IMG/VR virus record: IMGVR_UViG_3300025645_000060
Coordinates: 4,947 to 68,946 of that record
DNA length: 64,000 bases
Strand: one strand, 5' to 3'
Source of the DNA: a virus
The position numbers were made by a program, and so were the translations under genes. The notes beneath the pieces were generated by a model. That model saw only the letters and a program-made list of their open reading frames with translations. It ran no database searches and was not told where the DNA came from. Each line of letters opens with the position of its first letter. The first letter of the stretch is position 1. This document shows, piece after piece, positions 3,334 to 48,361 of this stretch.

Positions 3334-6300
3334 TTAATTGATTCTATTTAAAATGAGCCTTACATCATTGTATGTATAGTCAGCGTCAGTTGTACTGTCT
3401 AACTCTAAAGATATAGCATCGTTCGCCGATAGGTTCAAATGATACGTATAGGCAATGGCTGAATTTACGTCCGCCGCTTTTATTTTTACAGACCTATCTA
3501 GTGTCCCATTTATTAAAATATTAACAGACAATATTTCGTCGGCCGTATAGCTACCAATATTACCAGAAAAAGACACCTCCCAAATCCCAGCATTAGTAAC
3601 CTCGATATCTTCGCCAGTTGTTATATCTGTGTTAGTATTAATATCTGATCCGAATACCGCATTAAATAAAACTTGTGTCGCCGCCGTAGATGATATAGTA
3701 TTCAATCCAGTTTCAGCACCACCGTAACCAGTAGCGATTAAATCTGTTTCTACGATATGACCATCAGCATCGAACGCAGCATTTTTTGTAGCTGCGCCAA
3801 CAATCCGATCTGAGATTGCCAACGACCCAGTAATCTCCACTTCCTCAGTAACAAAATCACCAAAAATTAATGGTTGGTCTTGATACATCCCGATCGCTAA
3901 TTTATAATTTCCTGCGGCATCTGTTCCATCTGTATATCCTTGACGATAACCTAACAATATCGAATTGTGCAAATTGGCTAGTTCTCCATATCCATTTTCA
4001 TAGCCTATCATAATTGATCGTTTTAGTGACCCCGTGCAATTATATCCGTTCCTAAACCCATGAATGAACGCAGATTCCATATTCCCACCGACATAAGCGT
4101 TCTGGTAACCGCTTAAAAAAGTGTAATCTAAATCAGCAGTTGTGGAGTTAGCCGCATTAAAATAACCTACCGCAAAACTATAATCTGAATCTAATGCTTT
4201 TTCTGCGTTATTTCTTCCGACCATAAAGTTATGCGTCATGTCCGCAGTCGTTGTCGATAAATTTCTATCTCCAGCCAAAAATGAATATGTAATAGAACTG
4301 GCATCCGCTGCGTTCCTATAGCCACTCATAAAATTATACCCAACAGATGTGGCATCTTGTGCATTGTAAGCACCGTTATAAAACTCATAGTAGGAGTTAC
4401 CAGTGTTACTATATGCATTGTTTAGCCCAAACGCAGTACTGCCGTAAATACCTGAATTAGTGTTGTAATAGTTACTGTGACCGCTGATTGTAGCATAGTT
4501 GAGAGTAGCCGTCCCAACATAGCCGTTCCTAAACCCATTGATAAAAGAATAATCTGCATCCGTCGCAGATGGAAAGTTTTGGAGACCATTTACAAAAAGA
4601 TAAGACGATGGAGTAGTCATATTCTTAAAGTTATCTAAACCATTAGAAAACGTATAATTCAGACTTGTCGAACTTTTAAAATTACCTTGTCCTGCCGAAA
4701 AATTATAATTGCCGCTAGTTATTGCCGCCAAATTGTCTATCCCGAAATTAGTATTAGCTAACCCGCTATCTTTTGGAAATTCTTGTGTAAAAACGCCATT
4801 CATCGCTAATGAGTTCTCAACTTCTACCCCGCCTGCCCTATTAAATGCCATTAAGTCGAATAATGATGGCGAACCAGTTGTTGCGTTGTTAGATTCTAAG
4901 TATAACTTATTCCCAATGCCGTCCAACCTAAATCTAAAACCATAGGAAAAAGTGGCACTACTATTTTCGACAAAGTTAATTTCTGCCGCTTGAGATACGT
5001 TTCCACTCCTTCCTAAAAATAAACTTGCGCCGTCTGTTCCATTTGTGTTTGTTAATATCGTCTGACCATCTATGTGTAACTTTGCTTGCGGATTAGTATT
5101 CCCGATCCCAACATTCCCATCAGAATAAACTGCGTCTAATGGATCAGTACCATCTACAAACTTTCCATCAGCCGTAGTCAAATCTACTTCAACTAACTGA
5201 CCGTTAGCGTCAAACGCTGCTGACTTTGTAGCTGCACCGCCTATTCGGTCTGATACGTGCAATTCTCCGTTTACCGTCAATTCATCCGTTGCAAAATCGC
5301 CATAAATTAAAGGCGTCGTCGTATTACTATTATCTATGTATAATTTGTTAGAGCCTGTTTCTAACGAACCCGCATTAAAGCCAAGATATACCCCATAATC
5401 ACCAGCAGCAATCGCCCCTGAGTTATACCCAAAACAAGAGTTACCTATACCACTCGTTTTCCCCGCAAAAGAACCAACTACCGTACTAAAGTCACCGACC
5501 GAAACTGATCCCGCTTCATTCCCAATTACCACCGACCTATCTATGTCTGTGTCTCCATCACCCGCATCATATCCAATTATTACACTTTTCTCGCCAGTGG
5601 TATTAGATACCCCCGCCGATGAACCGATAAACACATTAAACCGTCCGCTTGTATTACCTAATCCAGCCAAATAACCAATAAATGTATTATTGATCCCTGT
5701 ATTAGACTGACCAGCTAAGTGACCAATTGCTAATAGACTACCACCTGTGTTGTTTTTACCCGCCCTATATCCTATCGCCGTAGACGTTCCAGCCGTACCG
5801 TTCATCAAAGCCTCAAAACCGACACCTATATTACTTGCTTGTATATTATTTGCTCCTGCATCCTCCCCGATAAATACACTCTTTGATGTATTTGCAAAAT
5901 CTATATATCCGTTCCCTATGATTAGATCAGCGTATGGACTTAATCCGCTTGTACCGATAGCTGCTTTCCCGTTAACTTCTAGATCACCTACTACATCTAA
6001 AGTTGCGCTAGGTGTGTTCGTTCCGATTCCAATATTTCCACTTGGAAACGAAATGTCTCCAATCGCACTTCGTTCAACCCTCATAAATGTATTTGGTACA
6101 TCGCTTAACACTCTATTAAATACTATATCGTTTTCTGTACTACCTTCAAACCCGATAGAAAAACCCCTTGTTTCATTACTAGCACCCGACATCTTAAATG
6201 GATTAGAATCTATAGTTTCTGCCCTTATCTCTAGTCGTTCATCGGGTGTATTCGTTCCGATACCTACATAACCATCCATATAAACGGCGTCTAATGGATC

Positions 6301-34581: not shown

Positions 34582-34914
34582 TTTTAAAAGTTTTATAAAT
34601 TAGCTAACTACCAATTATAATTCAAATATCGTATTAATATCTGATATATTCTAGTTATTGCGAAAAAAAGATATATTTTTATTATTGTAATATGTTTTGA
34701 TCATATACACTATATAAAGGAACACACACGCACGTAACTAAAATTTTCACATATGCAAATATTTCTTTGCCTAAATTTTGCCGTTAACACATATGAATTT
34801 ATACAATATGATGAATCCAATCTACTTAGTGTACATTTGACACTATCCTTAGTGTAGATCTCACACGAACCTGGTTGTCCTAGTATCTCTATCGTCAGAA
34901 AATGCAGCCTCGTT

Positions 34915-35021
34915 TTCCCTAGAAAGCCCATTGGGCAAATTCCCTAGAAATCGCTCTGGGCAAATTTCCCTAGAAAGTCCGTTGGGCAAATTTTATTTCC
35001 CTAGAGATCGCATTGGGCAAA
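34915..35021. repeat. four 25-bp tandem repeats TTCCCTAGA(A/G)A-N6-TGGGCAAA
   Basis: Units start at 34915, 34940, 34966 and 34997. Confidence 0.9.
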
Positions 35022-35390: not shown

Positions 35391-35581
35391 TTCTAGCGAT
35401 GTTATGCCAAAACATATACTATCATGCCACAGAACACAAGAAAGCCCCTTAGATCGTGTCTGAGAGGCTCAATTGATGTTTGCTGTGAGTGAATGGTTGC
35501 TATCTTTGTCTTGTGTGTATGGTATTAGTGTTTGTTTGTTACTAACATATGGTTCAGTTTACCATACTCTCTAGAAAATCG

Positions 35582-35699
35582 AGTTTGCAAATATTTTCCA
35601 GTTTGCAATTTTTTTCTGGTTTGCAAAATAATTCCAGTTTGCAAATCTTTTTCAGTTTCCAATTTATTCTCAGTTTGAAAACCTAGTTTGAAAATTATT
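35582..35699. repeat. 18-bp-period tandem repeats AGTTTG(C/A)AA
   Basis: Units start at 35582, 35600, 35618, 35636, 35654, 35672 and 35685. Confidence 0.85.
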
Positions 35700-35703
35700 C
35701 CCG

Positions 35704-44032: not shown

Positions 44033-44133
44033 ATCTATTTATTTAGAAAGCGCATATGCAATAAGCATCCATAACGCCAATTGACTTAACACTAAAAATT
44101 CCATCATATTGTTTTATATTTTAGTTAAAAAAA

Positions 44134-44191
44134 AGATAACAGCCGATAAGATTCAACGCTAAAAAGCGCAGAACTTATCTATTCGTTTTTT
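44134..44191 (+). mobile_element. attC-like site 1 (A-tract class)
   Basis: GATAAC...GATAAG(A)TTC-CGCT/AGCG-GAACTTATC...CGTT hairpin. Confidence 0.65.
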
Positions 44192-44279
44192 TGCCTTCAA
44201 CACGTGCTTATAGAATCGGCACAAAGCCTGTTCATATCTTTGCTTTGCTGAACTATTAGCATAAGTACCATAAAAGTTT

Positions 44280-44474
44280 TCATTTCTTAAAATTTTCAAT
44301 TAAGTAATCTCCTACTGATACTTCGTGCGGCTTTCCACTATTTCTTCCGTACCTTTCTTTATATTCTTTAATAATCTGATTCGCTTTTGCTTCGAGATTT
44401 TTATTGCCGATTATTTCCTCTAGTATATCTAATAATTTAATATACTTTTCTTTCAATCTGTTTTTTAGTTTCAT
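44280..44474 (-). CDS. hypothetical protein, possible cassette cargo (MKLKNRL...)
   Basis: Lies between attC-like sites 1 and 2; the longer ORF call runs through site 2 and another gene. Confidence 0.5.
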   Translation of the reverse strand: MKLKNRLKEKYIKLLDILEEIIGNKNLEAKANQIIKEYKERYGRNSGKPHEVSVGDYLIENFKK

Positions 44475-44499
44475 TGTATTTATAGTTGAGTTTGTGAAA

Positions 44500-44556
44500 A
44501 AATAACAGTCGAAGATCATGCCATCGGAAAGGACGGCAGATTTCTTAGCGTTGTGT
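44500..44556 (+). mobile_element. attC-like site 2 (A-tract class)
   Basis: AATAACAGTC-GAAGATC-TGCC...GGCA-GATTTC...CGTTGTGT. Confidence 0.7.
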
Positions 44557-44562
44557 GTAATA

Positions 44563-44772
44563 CTAGCAACTACCATATCTGAAACTACCAAATCCTTCAC
44601 CATCGCATTCCTCATCTACAAAGAATCCAAGTTTATCAAGTTCTTCAATATCTTCCTTACTTACTAATTCAGGGTTTATATCTACATAAAAGTAGTCGTG
44701 TTCACAATGGCTTGGGTTTCTTGGGTTGCCATATTTTAAAAGGATTTGTAATGCTTTAATTAAATCTTCCAT
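44563..44772 (-). CDS. cassette cargo, small acidic protein
   Basis: Fills cassette 44551-44898. Confidence 0.7.
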   Translation of the reverse strand: MEDLIKALQILLKYGNPRNPSHCEHDYFYVDINPELVSKEDIEELDKLGFFVDEECDGEGFGSFRYGSC

Positions 44773-44809
44773 CTTATTTATTTAGTTTGTGGCTTAAATT
44801 CCGTACTAC

Positions 44810-44904
44810 ACACAACAATGTATATAGTTTATAAGCCAATTAATATTTGTTTTCAATTGTAATTTTCTGCTATGGCTTACAAAACCATATACTCAACGTT
44901 AGTA
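44810..44904 (+). mobile_element. attC-like site 3
   Basis: ACACAAC-AAT-GTATATAGTTTATAAGCCA...TGGCTTACAAAACCATATAC-TCAAC-GTTAGTA. Confidence 0.85.
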
Positions 44905-44943
44905 ACAATTATTTTTTTTTGCCACCAAGCAGTACGCACTTAC

Positions 44944-45411
44944 TCAATCGTTATTATAATGCTTTAAATAAGGCTGTTCTTTTTTGGTACATTTCTTTTT
45001 CCATCGTTTGTCTAAAAAGATTATATATCTAAATTGTCTTAGTGTTTCTTTTGTGGCTTTCTCTTTAAAACCACGCCTTTCCAACTCAGCCTTTTTATTT
45101 CGGTTGTTATTCGTTATTAAACTATTATGGTATGTTTTCCCCTCAAAGTTCCAGAAAGTACTTGTATGCTCACCAAAATAACTAAAATTAGCCGCTTGGT
45201 AAACAATACCTAAACCTCCACACCGTTCATCTGCAAAACTTTGAATCCACTTAACAGTCTTGTATTTACCTTTAATGTATTTTATGCTATAACTTATGGC
45301 TTTACTTTCTGTATTTTTAACAGCCTTATCATCAAACCACATTCTATTAAGTTCCTTGTATTGGTTTAGTTTCGTTCCTGTAACTAAAGAGCCTCCGCTT
45401 TGTGGGTTCAT
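44944..45411 (-). pseudogene. Mom-like/GNAT DNA-modification protein, apparently 5'-truncated
   Basis: ELNRMWFDD...ESKAIS...IQSFADERCG..GIVYQAANF; the N-terminal part and a closing attC are missing. Confidence 0.55.
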
Positions 45412-45555
45412 AGCATTATGCCGTTTACCTCAGTCATGTATTCTTTAAAAGTCATATTCTCGTTATTTATACCGCCTCAGACGGTGTTTAGCTTTTTCGT
45501 TATCACATAAGTTAACAAACATAAATTAATGTAAACATATCTGACTACATTTTGA

Positions 45556-45655
45556 AATGGAGTAGCGATTAAAGTTTCACCTCAATAACCACCACTCCAA
45601 ATAACCTGCCTTGGTAGCGACTCCAGAACATCAAATGATGCAACGACAGCAGCGA
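45556..45655 (-). ncRNA. candidate structured RNA, copy 1
   Basis: Homologous to 59911-60012; G.U-containing stem around GAGGTGAAAC. Confidence 0.65.
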
Positions 45656-45660
45656 CTCAG

Positions 45661-46053
45661 CTAAGAGTCGATATCTTTAAATATATTTTCCAAGTCTTTC
45701 TTTAAATACTCGTAGTTCAGTGCAGTATATCTAAGAACCTTCCATCCTAGTATAGCTGCGTTATTGTACTTTTCGCAATCTTTACTGTAGCCTGTAATGG
45801 AAGTGTGTCGGCTCTTATGTCCTACAATTCCCTCATACTCTATAGCCACATTGATACTCAGTATAGCAACATCAAATCTCCATCGCCTAGTCTTGTGGAA
45901 TCTATGTTCTTCTACGTAGGCTATTTCCATCTCGTCAAGTATGTTCAGTATATTAACCAAACCAACAGGTCTATTGTCAACTAGATCTTCCGCTCCTTTT
46001 ACTCTGCGCCCTTTATTCTTTAACTTCTCTACATCCTTTTTAGTCCATTTCAT
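45661..46053 (-). CDS. PD-(D/E)XK nuclease (DUF559-like)
   Basis: EHRFHKTRRWRFDVA...AIEYEG...KYNNAAILGWKVLR. Confidence 0.8.
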   Translation of the reverse strand: MKWTKKDVEKLKNKGRRVKGAEDLVDNRPVGLVNILNILDEMEIAYVEEHRFHKTRRWRFDVAILSINVAIEYEGIVGHKSRHTSITGYSKDCEKYNNAAILGWKVLRYTALNYEYLKKDLENIFKDIDS

Positions 46054-46075
46054 GTAACAAAAATACTAAAAAAAA

Positions 46076-46134
46076 AAATAACAGTCGATGAAGATTCAAC
46101 GATAAGAATCGCAGAACTTATCTCTTCGTTGTGC
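46076..46134 (+). mobile_element. attC-like site 4 (A-tract class; head of the main array)
   Basis: Near copy of site 1; ends CGTTGTGC. Confidence 0.75.
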
Positions 46135-46139
46135 GCAAT

Positions 46140-46367
46140 TTAAGCAACATCTGCACTTTTATAGTCAGAAGGCTCAAATCCTGCGTTCCAAAAAAATAGT
46201 GTACCTCTTTTTAGTTTCTTTTTTGTGTCTTGATGCTCACATTCTACTTTCCTTTTTTCAATCGGTTTTTCGCACCTCTCACCATCTGAATTGATGAAGT
46301 AAACCAAGTCGCCTTCTTTTACTTCTTTACCATTTGATAATTTTGTCTTTTTAAATAATCCGAACAT
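46140..46367 (-). CDS. cassette cargo, paralog of 47324-47554
   Basis: Cassette 46129-46503; FINSDGERCE...GTLFFWN. Confidence 0.75.
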   Translation of the reverse strand: MFGLFKKTKLSNGKEVKEGDLVYFINSDGERCEKPIEKRKVECEHQDTKKKLKRGTLFFWNAGFEPSDYKSADVA

Positions 46368-46378
46368 AATAAAACTGC

Positions 46379-46509
46379 GCACAACATTGTATATAAATCA
46401 GTGGCGTTGTACGTCTTTTTAACCACTTTTAGCTGTTTTATTTAGTTTAAGCGTGTTGGCAATCTATCAGCTATTAATCGCCACCGCTTCATATACTTAG
46501 CCGTTATCT
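46379..46509 (+). mobile_element. attC-like site 5
   Basis: GCACAAC-ATT-GTATATAAATCAGTGGCG...CGCCACCGCTTCATATAC-TTAGCC-GTTATCT. Confidence 0.85.
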
Positions 46510-46516
46510 ACAATAT

Positions 46517-46705
46517 CTATTTTGCCGCCCTCTTATATGTATTCACCCACACAAACCTTCTGCATATATAACAAAATACCTGTGTATTGCCCGTTTTAAT
46601 TTGCTTGTCTGCCCAATCGAACCATTGGTTATAACCATCTGGTTCTTTCATCTGATGTTTTATATGTGGGTGTACACATATTGTGTCTTTCTTTTTAAAG
46701 CACAT
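46517..46705 (-). CDS. cassette cargo, small Cys/His protein
   Basis: Cassette 46504-47028; EPDGYNQWFDWA...CYIC. Confidence 0.65.
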   Translation of the reverse strand: MCFKKKDTICVHPHIKHQMKEPDGYNQWFDWADKQIKTGNTQVFCYICRRFVWVNTYKRAAK

Positions 46706-46925
46706 ATTTATATACTATATATTCATTTATAAACTTGTACATATGGTCTAATCTCCAACCACCTTTAGTTTTCCATAGCCATGTAGTATAATCTTTTAGT
46801 ATTTCAATTTCTTTTTTTTTGTATTTACCTTCTACTATATTGATAATCTCGTCAATATCGCCTTGTAATAAGGTGACATTATGATTGTCTGCCATATAGT
46901 CAAATAGGTCTTGATTTTCCTCCAT
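46695..46925 (-). CDS. cassette cargo, hypothetical protein
   Basis: Second gene of cassette 46504-47028. Confidence 0.65.
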   Translation of the reverse strand: MEENQDLFDYMADNHNVTLLQGDIDEIINIVEGKYKKKEIEILKDYTTWLWKTKGGWRLDHMYKFINEYIVYKYVL

Positions 46926-46978
46926 AATTTGATTTTTTTAATTTTAAAAAAGCTCCGCAGCTAAAAAATAGATACTGT

Positions 46979-47034
46979 AGATAACAGTAGATACGATGTC
47001 ATACGAGTACGACACATATCATCTGCCGTTACCA
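46979..47034 (+). mobile_element. attC-like site 6
   Basis: AGATAAC...GATA-TGTC-TAC/GTA-GACA-TATC...CGTTACCA. Confidence 0.8.
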
Positions 47035-47040
47035 ATAATA

Positions 47041-47223
47041 CTAAATTTTAGTACTATCAATTAACTCGTTGTATTCTTCAATCCACTCAATAGGTATTTT
47101 CATACTTGCATCGTAGTATCTTACAATTGCACCTCTTACTTCTTGTAGCCTTTCAAGTCTATTTACAAACTTAGGTTTCAATCCTATTGGTGGCATTTCT
47201 ACTTTTTCGTGTTCTTTTTTCAT
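47041..47223 (-). CDS. cassette cargo, small phage protein
   Basis: Cassette 47029-47313; PPIGLKP...IPIEWIEEYNEL. Confidence 0.7.
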   Translation of the reverse strand: MKKEHEKVEMPPIGLKPKFVNRLERLQEVRGAIVRYYDASMKIPIEWIEEYNELIDSTKI

Positions 47224-47264
47224 CTTTTCTATTTATTAAGTTATTTCTATTTAATCCGTACTAT

Positions 47265-47319
47265 TGGTAACAACACCTATACGCCATACAAATACAGGCG
47301 CATAGCCAAACCGTTATGC
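47265..47319 (+). mobile_element. attC-like site 7
   Basis: TGGTAAC...CTATACGCC...GGCGCATAG...CGTTATGC. Confidence 0.8.
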
Positions 47320-47323
47320 GCAA

Positions 47324-47554
47324 TTAAACAATAAACGCATTCTTGTAATCTGAAATATTAAATCCAATATTCCAGAAAAACAAAGTTCCTTTTTTCAGCC
47401 TTTCACCAGTATCATTGTGTGTTGTCTTAAATTTCCTACATTGTATTAAACCTTCGCATCTTTCACCATCTGAGTTTATAAAAGCAATCTTATCGCCTTC
47501 TTTTACCTCAGTACCATTAAATAGTTTTGTTTTTCTTTGCTTAAATAAGTTCAT
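47324..47554 (-). CDS. cassette cargo, paralog of 46140-46367
   Basis: Cassette 47314-47660. Confidence 0.75.
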   Translation of the reverse strand: MNLFKQRKTKLFNGTEVKEGDKIAFINSDGERCEGLIQCRKFKTTHNDTGERLKKGTLFFWNIGFNISDYKNAFIV

Positions 47555-47572
47555 AATCAACCAATTAACGGC

Positions 47573-47666
47573 ACACAACATTGTATATAGTTAATGCGCC
47601 AATGAAGTTGAGTGCTTAATTCAATCGTTTGTTGTAGGCGCACTAACCATATACCTACCGTTGTAC
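47573..47666 (+). mobile_element. attC-like site 8
   Basis: ACACAAC-ATT-GTATATAGTTAATGCGCC...GGCGCACTAACCATATAC-CTACC-GTTGTAC. Confidence 0.85.
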
Positions 47667-47670
47667 GCCA

Positions 47671-47934
47671 TTAAAGCCTACTCCCCCAATAATCATCCCA
47701 CAACTCTTGGTAATATTCATAGCTTTCTTGTTGGCAGTATTTGCAACCTATTGCATAATTGCTTTCTTCATCTACATAAGCAGTATTCATTCTGTACCTT
47801 TTGGGGTATAAAAACCATCCATGCAAGGGGCAGTATCCCAACGCCCACCACACAAAACGGCGTACAACAATAAATAAACGCAATTGTTTACGCTCTTTCT
47901 GTTGCTTATGTGTTATATTTTCAAAGTCTTTCAT
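47671..47934 (-). CDS. cassette cargo whose 5' part overlaps attC site 9
   Basis: Cassette 47661-47973; probable ATG in the attC loop. Confidence 0.6.
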   Translation of the reverse strand: MKDFENITHKQQKERKQLRLFIVVRRFVWWALGYCPLHGWFLYPKRYRMNTAYVDEESNYAIGCKYCQQESYEYYQELWDDYWGSRL

Positions 47935-47979
47935 TTTATCAAATTTAGTGTTCAACTGCGTTTATTATCAACGTTACCT
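47862..47979 (+). mobile_element. attC-like site 9 (abuts the terS stop codon)
   Basis: GTACAAC...AATAAACGCAATTG...CAACTGCGTTTATT-ATCAAC-GTTACCT. Confidence 0.85.
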
Positions 47980-48361
47980 ACAGATCGTCACCAGCTTCAT
48001 CTATTACATTATTCTTTGCTGCTGCCGCATCTAGTAACTTTCTATCTTTTGGACTCAACCCAAAAAGACTAGATAGTTTAATGATATTCGCTATTGCTTT
48101 ATTTCGGATCGCCACCTCTGGTCTAGCTTGTCTGTAATCATTACCAGCTATAAATGTCAGGCCATCTTCTAATGCTTCATTACATATGTTAACAGTGTTT
48201 ATCGCTTGCGCTAAAAGTGATAATGATATTTGATCTTTTTGCAGATCAATAGACCCTTCCAGGTTAATTAATATTTGATCATATATTCTTTGATCTTCTT
48301 GCGCTCTTTTTATTAATTCCGCTTCGGTTGGTTTGTTTGATTTCAATTTTTTTAATGCCAT
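47978..48361 (-). CDS. terS: terminase small subunit, P27 family (phage B)
   Basis: EDGLTF...RPEVAIRNKA...LSSLFGLSPKDRKLL. Confidence 0.85.
   Translation of the reverse strand: MALKKLKSNKPTEAELIKRAQEDQRIYDQILINLEGSIDLQKDQISLSLLAQAINTVNICNEALEDGLTFIAGNDYRQARPEVAIRNKAIANIIKLSSLFGLSPKDRKLLDAAAAKNNVIDEAGDDL

Follow-up and report, generated by a model that had tools for sequence, protein, structure and literature searches.

Integron cassettes are generally taken to be promoterless genes that end at a recombination site, attC, and that are read from a promoter located at the integrase (PMC8876359); an IntI-specific domain of the integrase is thought to be essential to integron function (PMC8138268). 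Clusters of attC sites without an integrase have also been described in virulent phages, including the Flavobacteriia phage P12002L, with methyltransferase genes among the cargo—the two sites predicted in P12002L are given there as lying in 'divergent directions' (Qi et al. 2023; PMC9892861). A different kind of mobile module is described from T4-type phages: the PeSL regulatory cassettes (PeSLs), which are promoter-plus-terminator modules exchanged via homologous recombination (PMC2839356). Here we describe an array of attC-like hairpins and small genes at positions 44138–47975 of a 64-kb stretch of viral DNA (the window), which corresponds to positions 4,947–68,946 of the 68.9-kb IMG/VR virus record IMGVR_UViG_3300025645_000060; the record is estimated to be ~72% complete.

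We read this stretch as part of an integrase-less, integron-type cassette array in a phage related to Flavobacteriia phages, for which a recombinase acting in trans is proposed, and we put the probability of this reading at roughly three in four. With nine attC-like sites and no integrase, the window resembles the clusters of attC sites lacking integron integrases (CALINs). For the phage CALINs, the part of the report by Qi et al. that was available describes no systematic inverted polarity, conserved site families, or linked recombinase (PMC9892861). A search of full-text literature, with subscription journals mostly uncovered, turned up nothing beyond those clusters; the short recombinase discussed below, its junction motif, the families of conserved sites, and the inverted polarity were not found there.

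The mobile unit and its polarity

The nine attC-like sites are imperfect hairpins on the + strand, with coordinates that start at the first A of AAC and stop at the last T of GTT. Three are of a short type—a (44138–44187), b (44504–44552, with its G|TT crossover at 44550|44551), and e (46080–46130); three are long—c (44814–44900), f (46383–46505), and i (47577–47662); the remaining sites are g (46983–47030), h (47269–47315), and j (47866–47975). All nine read AAC-A...C-GTT. On this strand the mobile unit begins with the TT of a right-hand core and ends on the G of the following one. Each cassette therefore consists of core, stop, gene, start, leader, and attC, in that order, as follows from the ends of homology, a recurring unit, cassette-loss joints, and the layout of recombinase-linked arrays. 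An earlier note on this DNA had claimed that the attC lies upstream of its gene, in the cassette on its left, with the crossover at the right-hand G|TT, and these lines of evidence bear it out. It follows from the unit layout that the gene-sense strand is the counterpart of the recombining 'bottom' strand of a classical attC; this strand (minus) is also the better folder, being more stable than the + strand in eight of the nine window sites.

The earlier note had derived the polarity from the pairing of cores. Its conclusion stands; the argument does not, since the flanking repeats are reverse complements and the other strand gives an identical picture. These inverted repeats around the genes start with GTT, end with AAC, and span 10–14 nt. 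They are exact over at least 10 nt in five of the six cassettes between 44551 and 47973, and three pairs (I17, I18, and I25) reach 14 nt at 93%; the h/i pair, compared by hand, matches at only ~7 of 10 positions. A complement of 10–12 nt at fixed positions is no chance event, and the repeats may be regarded as the trace expected from a circular cassette cut at G|TT. For reference we read a class 1 array by hand (MH445380, a P1 record). All six of its cassettes show the order gene, stop, AAC-A, short spacer, left arm with an extra base, right arm, longer spacer, (C/T)-GTT, and each cassette begins with bases that complement the left core of that same cassette. With the + strand taken as the top strand, the window sites show AAC-A/C-GTT in all nine cases, the shorter left spacer in eight or nine, and extra left-arm bases in about four.

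Which hairpin travels with the gene can be seen from where homology begins and ends. Similarity between the paralogues at 46140 and 47324 begins exactly at CG|TT on the left and continues into the attC on the right, and an orthologue in L105 and L106 shares ~100 nt of attC on the upstream side, with divergence setting in directly past the downstream ACAAC. The c, f, and i sites have 36 copies in other viral contigs at 77–97% identity (the f type is found in 11 places, at 77–96%). Homology of these copies ends at the right-hand GTT; leftward it reaches the start codon of whichever gene follows. Own-core closure is seen in 26 of the 36 copies, with the 12-nt complement of the left core 183–339 nt away, straight after a variable ..C|GTT. 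Of the ORFs (open reading frames) that flank the copies, 33 of 34 on the left and 31 of 33 on the right run antisense to the site, some of the loci being near-duplicates. The whole unit 44549–44901 is found at 92% identity in L020, L007, and L102, two of which look like copies.

Cassette loss was sought as joints in metagenome contigs from public runs, using only the parts of the window that contigs cover. One joint leads from 47025 to 47311, skipping 285 nt with a shared CCGTTA, which is exactly cassette 47029–47313; it is present in contigs of all four runs, from two samples and two studies. The shorter side of this joint measures 103 letters in X3 and X5, 23 in X1, and 30 in X4, and the 103-letter sides carry 0–1 mismatches. 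A second joint links 47658 directly to 47972 across a shared CGTT and leaves out 313 nt—exactly cassette 47661–47973. The joints fix the crossover to within 4–6 nt, and both fall in right-hand cores. Both the loss of cassettes and their occurrence in other contexts have G|TT as their exact limit. The earlier note had looked to excision junctions at the other end as a sign of canonical polarity; with the joints located in right-hand cores, the reversed polarity is upheld.

All supported cargo ORFs are on the minus strand, as had been claimed. We take them for real genes because of Mom-like and phrog_503 matches and because mismatches are concentrated at third codon positions: between orthologues, mismatches at the first, second, and third positions of the minus frames number 1, 1, and 10; 4, 3, and 12 (in two comparisons); and 15, 14, and 30, the third position being the richest each time. 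As a caveat, gene strand is not independent between cassettes, since from ~53 kb down to ~36 kb the listed ORFs of at least 90 aa run almost all leftward. The distances from the G|TT crossover to the ORF ends at 44563, 46140, 46517, 47041, 47324, and 47671 are 12, 11, 13, 12, 10, and 10 nt, or 13–16 nt when counted to the far side of the stop, in agreement with the first estimate of about 11–16 nt.

The same polarity is found well beyond the window. In a census of closures with 10-mer cores across all viral and metagenome-assembled genome (MAG) loci—exact 11-mers were too strict—closure polarity was called from the bases beside the cores and gene strand from the longest ORF. Among 104 classifiable closures, near-duplicate contigs included, 89 were antisense and 15 sense; a further 133 were ambiguous, many of which chance would be expected to produce. 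Requiring a hairpin on either side of the gene gave 49 antisense to 3 sense, and on the class 1 control the census gave sense in both of two cases. The same sites occur in five or more intergenic regions of Polaribacter phage P12002L, a host-isolated phage; all neighbouring genes there lie on the opposite strand, methyltransferase genes and a Mom-like gene among them. The Vibrio phage record MK672805 held no usable integron annotation. The polarity is a property of the whole family and not a local adjustment to the leftward operon of this phage.

Like classical cassettes, those of the window are delimited by imperfect AAC...GTT hairpins, have their crossover at the G|TT of the right-hand core, and start with a sequence that pairs with their own left core. 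Like classical arrays, the phage arrays keep one polarity, with sites oriented away from the recombinase gene's 5' end, and one strand folds better, with G.T pairs. In contrast to the classical gene on the top strand, ending at its attC, the phage cargo is on the opposite strand throughout, with the attC before the gene and the stop abutting the crossover. The phage cassettes further differ in paired cores of 10–14 nt and in that most sites have no extra bases in the inner left arm, and the phage platform has no promoter reading outward from the recombinase; instead, the genes run towards it.

A short recombinase and its junction site

A tyrosine recombinase (PF00589) of 267–274 aa is encoded in three of the seven records that bear c-, f-, or i-type sites and are estimated to be 95–100% complete. 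It is best matched by NF040815, a XerA-type 'tyrosine recombinase/integron integrase' model (175–188 bits; cut-off 220), followed by TIGR02249, the integron integrase model (131–161 bits in two stretches; cut-off 265). The enzyme belongs to the same superfamily as IntI, with the same fold order, and its gene stands beside an attI-like site and an array; identity to IntI1 is 26% over the full length, with the catalytic motifs aligned. Unlike IntI, it stays below the TIGR02249 cut-off and measures ~270 aa, compared with the 337 aa of IntI1. The ~50 residues that are missing lie opposite roughly residues 197–270 of IntI1, where IntI carries its specific insertion. In classical integrases this insertion contacts the extrahelical bases of attC, and its absence from the phage enzyme coincides, suggestively, with most sites having no extra inner-arm bases.

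Relatives of the recombinase in viral contigs number 211, and the locus counts given here are for the best 80 of them. Classifiable closures occur upstream of the recombinase in 52 of the 53 loci with room for them, and downstream in 1 of 77; upstream, 130 of 152 classifiable closures are antisense, near-duplicates included. The motif TAAC-TAnnATATAT is found 23–64 nt before the recombinase gene in 65 of 75 loci, and 42 of 47 distinct loci have a first cassette that closes on the TAAC|TAnnATATAT junction: the variable 7 bases before AAC have their complement 102–913 nt upstream, and a T precedes the partner GTT in 41 of the 42. From these closures we conclude that the junction is a crossover point. 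Followed base by base, locus L062 has ..TATATATAATA-G|TTAGGCAC before its recombinase gene, and the cassette row starts there; the row includes an f-type site, and all its genes are on the recombinase strand. The sites are arranged round the recombinase as in a classical integron, with only the cargo reversed and running towards the recombinase.

A full integron platform—recombinase, adjacent primary site, and array—is thus found in relatives, and the window holds the array only. At the recombinase-proximal end of that array, 12 nt from site a, lies a candidate attI-like remnant on the minus strand (AAC-TA..ATATA, 44113–44126). Loose matches to the motif number 6 in the window against 4.9 ± 2.3 in shuffles, and it is the position alone that hints at a possible remnant. 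As a separate observation, L210 1–676 (from the record behind L072), 3' of the recombinase gene, contains at least ten (T/G/C)TACAAC motifs and three inverted GTTGTA; these resemble attC left cores and could be accessory binding sites.

The ~270-aa recombinase moving the window's cassettes would come in trans from a relative, either co-infecting or resident, and on the folded sense strand it would recombine attC with attC and attC with attI-like sites. The cargo would be expressed by read-through of the leftward phage operon, from primase to terminase, and the hairpins, in their better-folding form, would sit in mRNA leaders. Such read-through from phage promoters without a cassette promoter (Pc), with hairpins as leaders, had been proposed in the earlier note; it is plausible and fits both the geometry and the scarcity of promoter-like motifs. 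Accessory or counter-defence genes would be part of the cargo, as suggested by the Mom-like gene here and the methyltransferase genes in P12002L.

Taking the recombinase-linked loci together with the window, we lean somewhat towards an undescribed phage-borne class of integrons, defined by a ~270-aa Xer/IntI-like recombinase without the IntI domain, a TAAC|TAnnATATAT primary site, and attC-before-gene arrays whose recombining strand has mRNA sense. Such a class would have a wide distribution in aquatic phages, with relatives of Flavobacteriia phages among its carriers, and would provide an exchangeable store of accessory and counter-defence genes in which integrase-less arrays are served in trans. 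A large natural pool of cassettes built the other way round, and linked to a recombinase that has no IntI-specific domain, offers a comparison system—for how attC polarity and strand choice are set, and for the origin of integron integrases from Xer-like enzymes. It would also represent a phage cassette store that mirrors bacterial stores of defence genes. One advantage of the isolate P12002L is that it carries such arrays, which makes the system directly testable.

Distribution and competing explanations

In a collection of species genomes the site pattern occurs in five contigs only, all from MAGs (four with a Bacteroidota label and one with an archaeal label). A 3.4-kb contig in an archaeal MAG (L196, 1628–2134) has a c/i-type site beside a fragment of the phage recombinase (62% over 74 residues), and is probably a mis-binned phage contig. 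Among 401 Bacteroidia genomes there is no relative of the recombinase above 50% identity; the nearest are 46–50% identical, lie in longer frames, and come from 11 genomes, and the junction motif is missing from these 11 loci save for one loose match. IntI passes its cut-off in one of the 401 genomes (422 bits; L206 2160–2300, G285:C40), where one attC-like site stands upstream of intI and its top strand reads away from intI, as in classical integrons. A table of polarity in phages versus chromosomes, as recommended in the earlier note, could thus be filled on the phage side; this single G285 site is too little for the chromosomal side.

The integrase of Polaribacter Freya phages (38.5% identical, with small genes upstream) was considered as a member of the same system and rejected: it has no junction motif and no AAC..GTT sites. 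The ten Freya isolates (MT732463–MT732472) differ in genome length by up to 4.9 kb, and the start of the integrase is displaced by as much as 4.1 kb, which points to a variable small-gene block on its upstream side.

Several observations weigh against reading the window as an integrase-less array served in trans. Searches of its ~72% complete record with PF00589 and TIGR02249 found no tyrosine recombinase or IntI, and no Y1 transposase was found either, from which it follows that the array is integrase-less (CALIN-like). No tyrosine recombinase is present in four of the seven near-complete cassette-bearing records or in the complete P12002L genome either, and trans action is assumed on account of these absences. 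The collection's cultured phages contain no close relative of the recombinase, their nearest integrases being 37–40% identical. Only ~4 of the nine window sites have the extra left-inner-arm bases that typify classical attC sites; the closure counts take in near-duplicate contigs and read gene strand from the longest ORF only. The 313-nt joint offers weaker support than the 285-nt one, its sides being just 25–30 letters long at 90% likeness, and because the sides are short it may stem from a relative. Finally, a further joint (44495 to 46071; one contig of one run) links the left ends of the similar short sites b and e, and looks like homologous exchange and not core recombination.

That joint, lying in the common left part of b and e, is one of several points in favour of an explanation without site-specific recombination, in which the hairpins would be regulatory modules and the genes would be shuffled by homologous recombination or replication slippage, as with the PeSLs of T4-type phages. 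Elements of 100–140 nt that are 77–97% identical across contigs could support such exchange, and a YqaJ-like exonuclease is encoded in the window. A comparison of L105 (3233–4744) and L106 (3233–3300) gives a further example: ~1.4 kb of small genes differs between two copies of a different ~50-nt repeat (..GTTTACGAATGCTTCACAAAAGCATT..), and the exchange point inside this repeat looks like homologous recombination. PeSLs are likewise conserved stem-loops upstream of small accessory genes in variable phage regions, and are linked to shuffling and mini-circles (PMC2839356). However, the 4–6-nt overlaps at the junctions are too short for homologous shuffling, the cassette-specific closure of 10–14 nt requires a circular intermediate cut at G|TT, and the arrays stand strictly beside a tyrosine recombinase and a conserved junction site. 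A PeSL has a strong promoter and a terminator stem-loop in each module; sigma-70-type promoter-like motifs at the window sites are not above shuffles, terminator-like motifs are barely so (5 against 2.7 ± 1.8), and the Bacteroidota-type -7 motif (TAnnTTTG) occurs in or beside only two of the nine. Unlike PeSLs, which the window sites mostly fail to resemble in promoter consensus, the cassettes have a core-specific crossover, closure, and a linked tyrosine recombinase, and we regard shuffling without such an enzyme as very improbable.

Site-specific recombination could also be the work of a host: ordinary bacterial integron cassettes would have been caught by the phage and moved by a host IntI, and the phage recombinase would be unrelated. 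P12002L carries the same kind of sites as the window, and IntI1 recombined one of its two predicted attC sites (PMC9892861). What makes this explanation unlikely is the rarity of IntI in the 401 Bacteroidia genomes searched and of the site pattern in the species-genome collection, the phage-type cargo (a Mom-like gene and a PHROG-family endonuclease), and the tight link of the arrays to the recombinase; a uniformly inverted polarity is also unexpected from a bacterial cassette pool. Canonical polarity, with the crossover at the left (AAC) end and each gene followed by its own attC, would fit the flanking inverted repeats equally well, and a hairpin is physically downstream of every gene too. 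It is nonetheless hardly credible: homology of the 36 site copies stops at the right-hand GTT and not at AAC, the conserved unit 44549–44901 carries its attC on the start-codon side, the 285-nt deletion links two right-hand cores, and at the attI-like junction it is the distal attC on which the first cassette closes, in 42 of 47 loci. An array of attC-before-gene cassettes, recombined by a phage enzyme at G|TT, remains our preferred reading.

Cassettes, site details, and genome setting

The interval 46129–47973 is bounded by the first T following the G of site e and by the G of site j, and consists of five cassettes with genes on the minus strand. Cassette 46129–46503 has a core, a gene (46140–46367/46382), a leader, and attC f, and is supported by the I25 repeats and by the break points of its paralogue and orthologue. 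Cassette 46504–47028 holds two overlapping genes (46517–46705 and 46695–46925) and attC g; cassette 47029–47313, which is absent in some population variants, has a gene at 47041–47223 and attC h; and cassette 47314–47660 has the paralogue of 46140 (47324–47555/47581) and attC i. The last, 47661–47973, has a gene starting at 47671 and attC j, and abuts the stop of the terminase small subunit gene (47978–48361).

To the left, cassette 44551–44898 (minus strand) comprises a core, a gene of 69 aa (44563–44772), a leader, and attC c, and shows both the 14-nt repeats (I17) and the third-codon-position bias. It is followed by a mosaic stretch, 44899–46128, again with minus-strand genes: a Mom-like gene (44944–45411) and a phrog_503 endonuclease-like gene (45661–46053). 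The stretch ends in attC e, and its extended cores do not close. Its portion 44944–45660 is a mosaic without a clear attC, and contigs of other runs diverge at 45411 and 45622–45651. The Mom-like gene matches PF25680 with an E value of 2.5e-46, covering only positions 51–200 of the 202-position Pfam profile.

The 7-nt core consensus of classical attC sites is RYYYAAC/GTTRRRY, which the window sites match loosely outside the triplets. Some of these cores may resemble chromosomal dimer-resolution (dif-type) sites. In a hand alignment the left spacer is shorter than the right in eight or nine of the nine sites; extra bases in the left inner arm were found by hand in a, b, e, and probably g, with none in c, f, h, i, and j—the asymmetry lies in the unpaired spacer rather than in extra arm bases. 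The i-type consensus has 23 pairs, three of them invariant G.U pairs that become A.C mismatches if read on the + strand. The short sites a, b, and e have a common left part, AAAAAATAACAG(T/C)CGA, and each hairpin is followed in the sense direction by a T-run, which makes these sites look like terminators.

Ranking AAC..GTT hairpins by energy failed to set the attC-like sites apart from background, and Rfam held no relevant family. A covariance model built from five short sites recovered its own seeds only; no other short site of the window came up with it, nor did the long ones. In the whole array there is a single full Bacteroidota-type -33/-7 promoter match, in site j, on the minus strand at 47940–47971 (TTG, 21 nt, TAAATTTG); site j is the site first met by transcription.

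Short DNA matches link the window to Nonlabens and Cellulophaga phages. Read leftward, the genes around the array encode a primase-polymerase/VapE helicase, an HNH protein, an ATPase-GNAT protein, a DUF3850 protein, and the terminase small subunit; the cassette array follows, and further on lies the gene for the terminase large subunit. A gene-poor region of the window contains two sets of direct repeats, at 34870–35010 and 35560–35700. One set has ~4 copies of a ~25-nt unit (..CCCTAGAAAGCCCATTGGGCAAATT..) and the other has ~6 copies of CAGTTTGCAAA-like units; both look like iterons or operator arrays.

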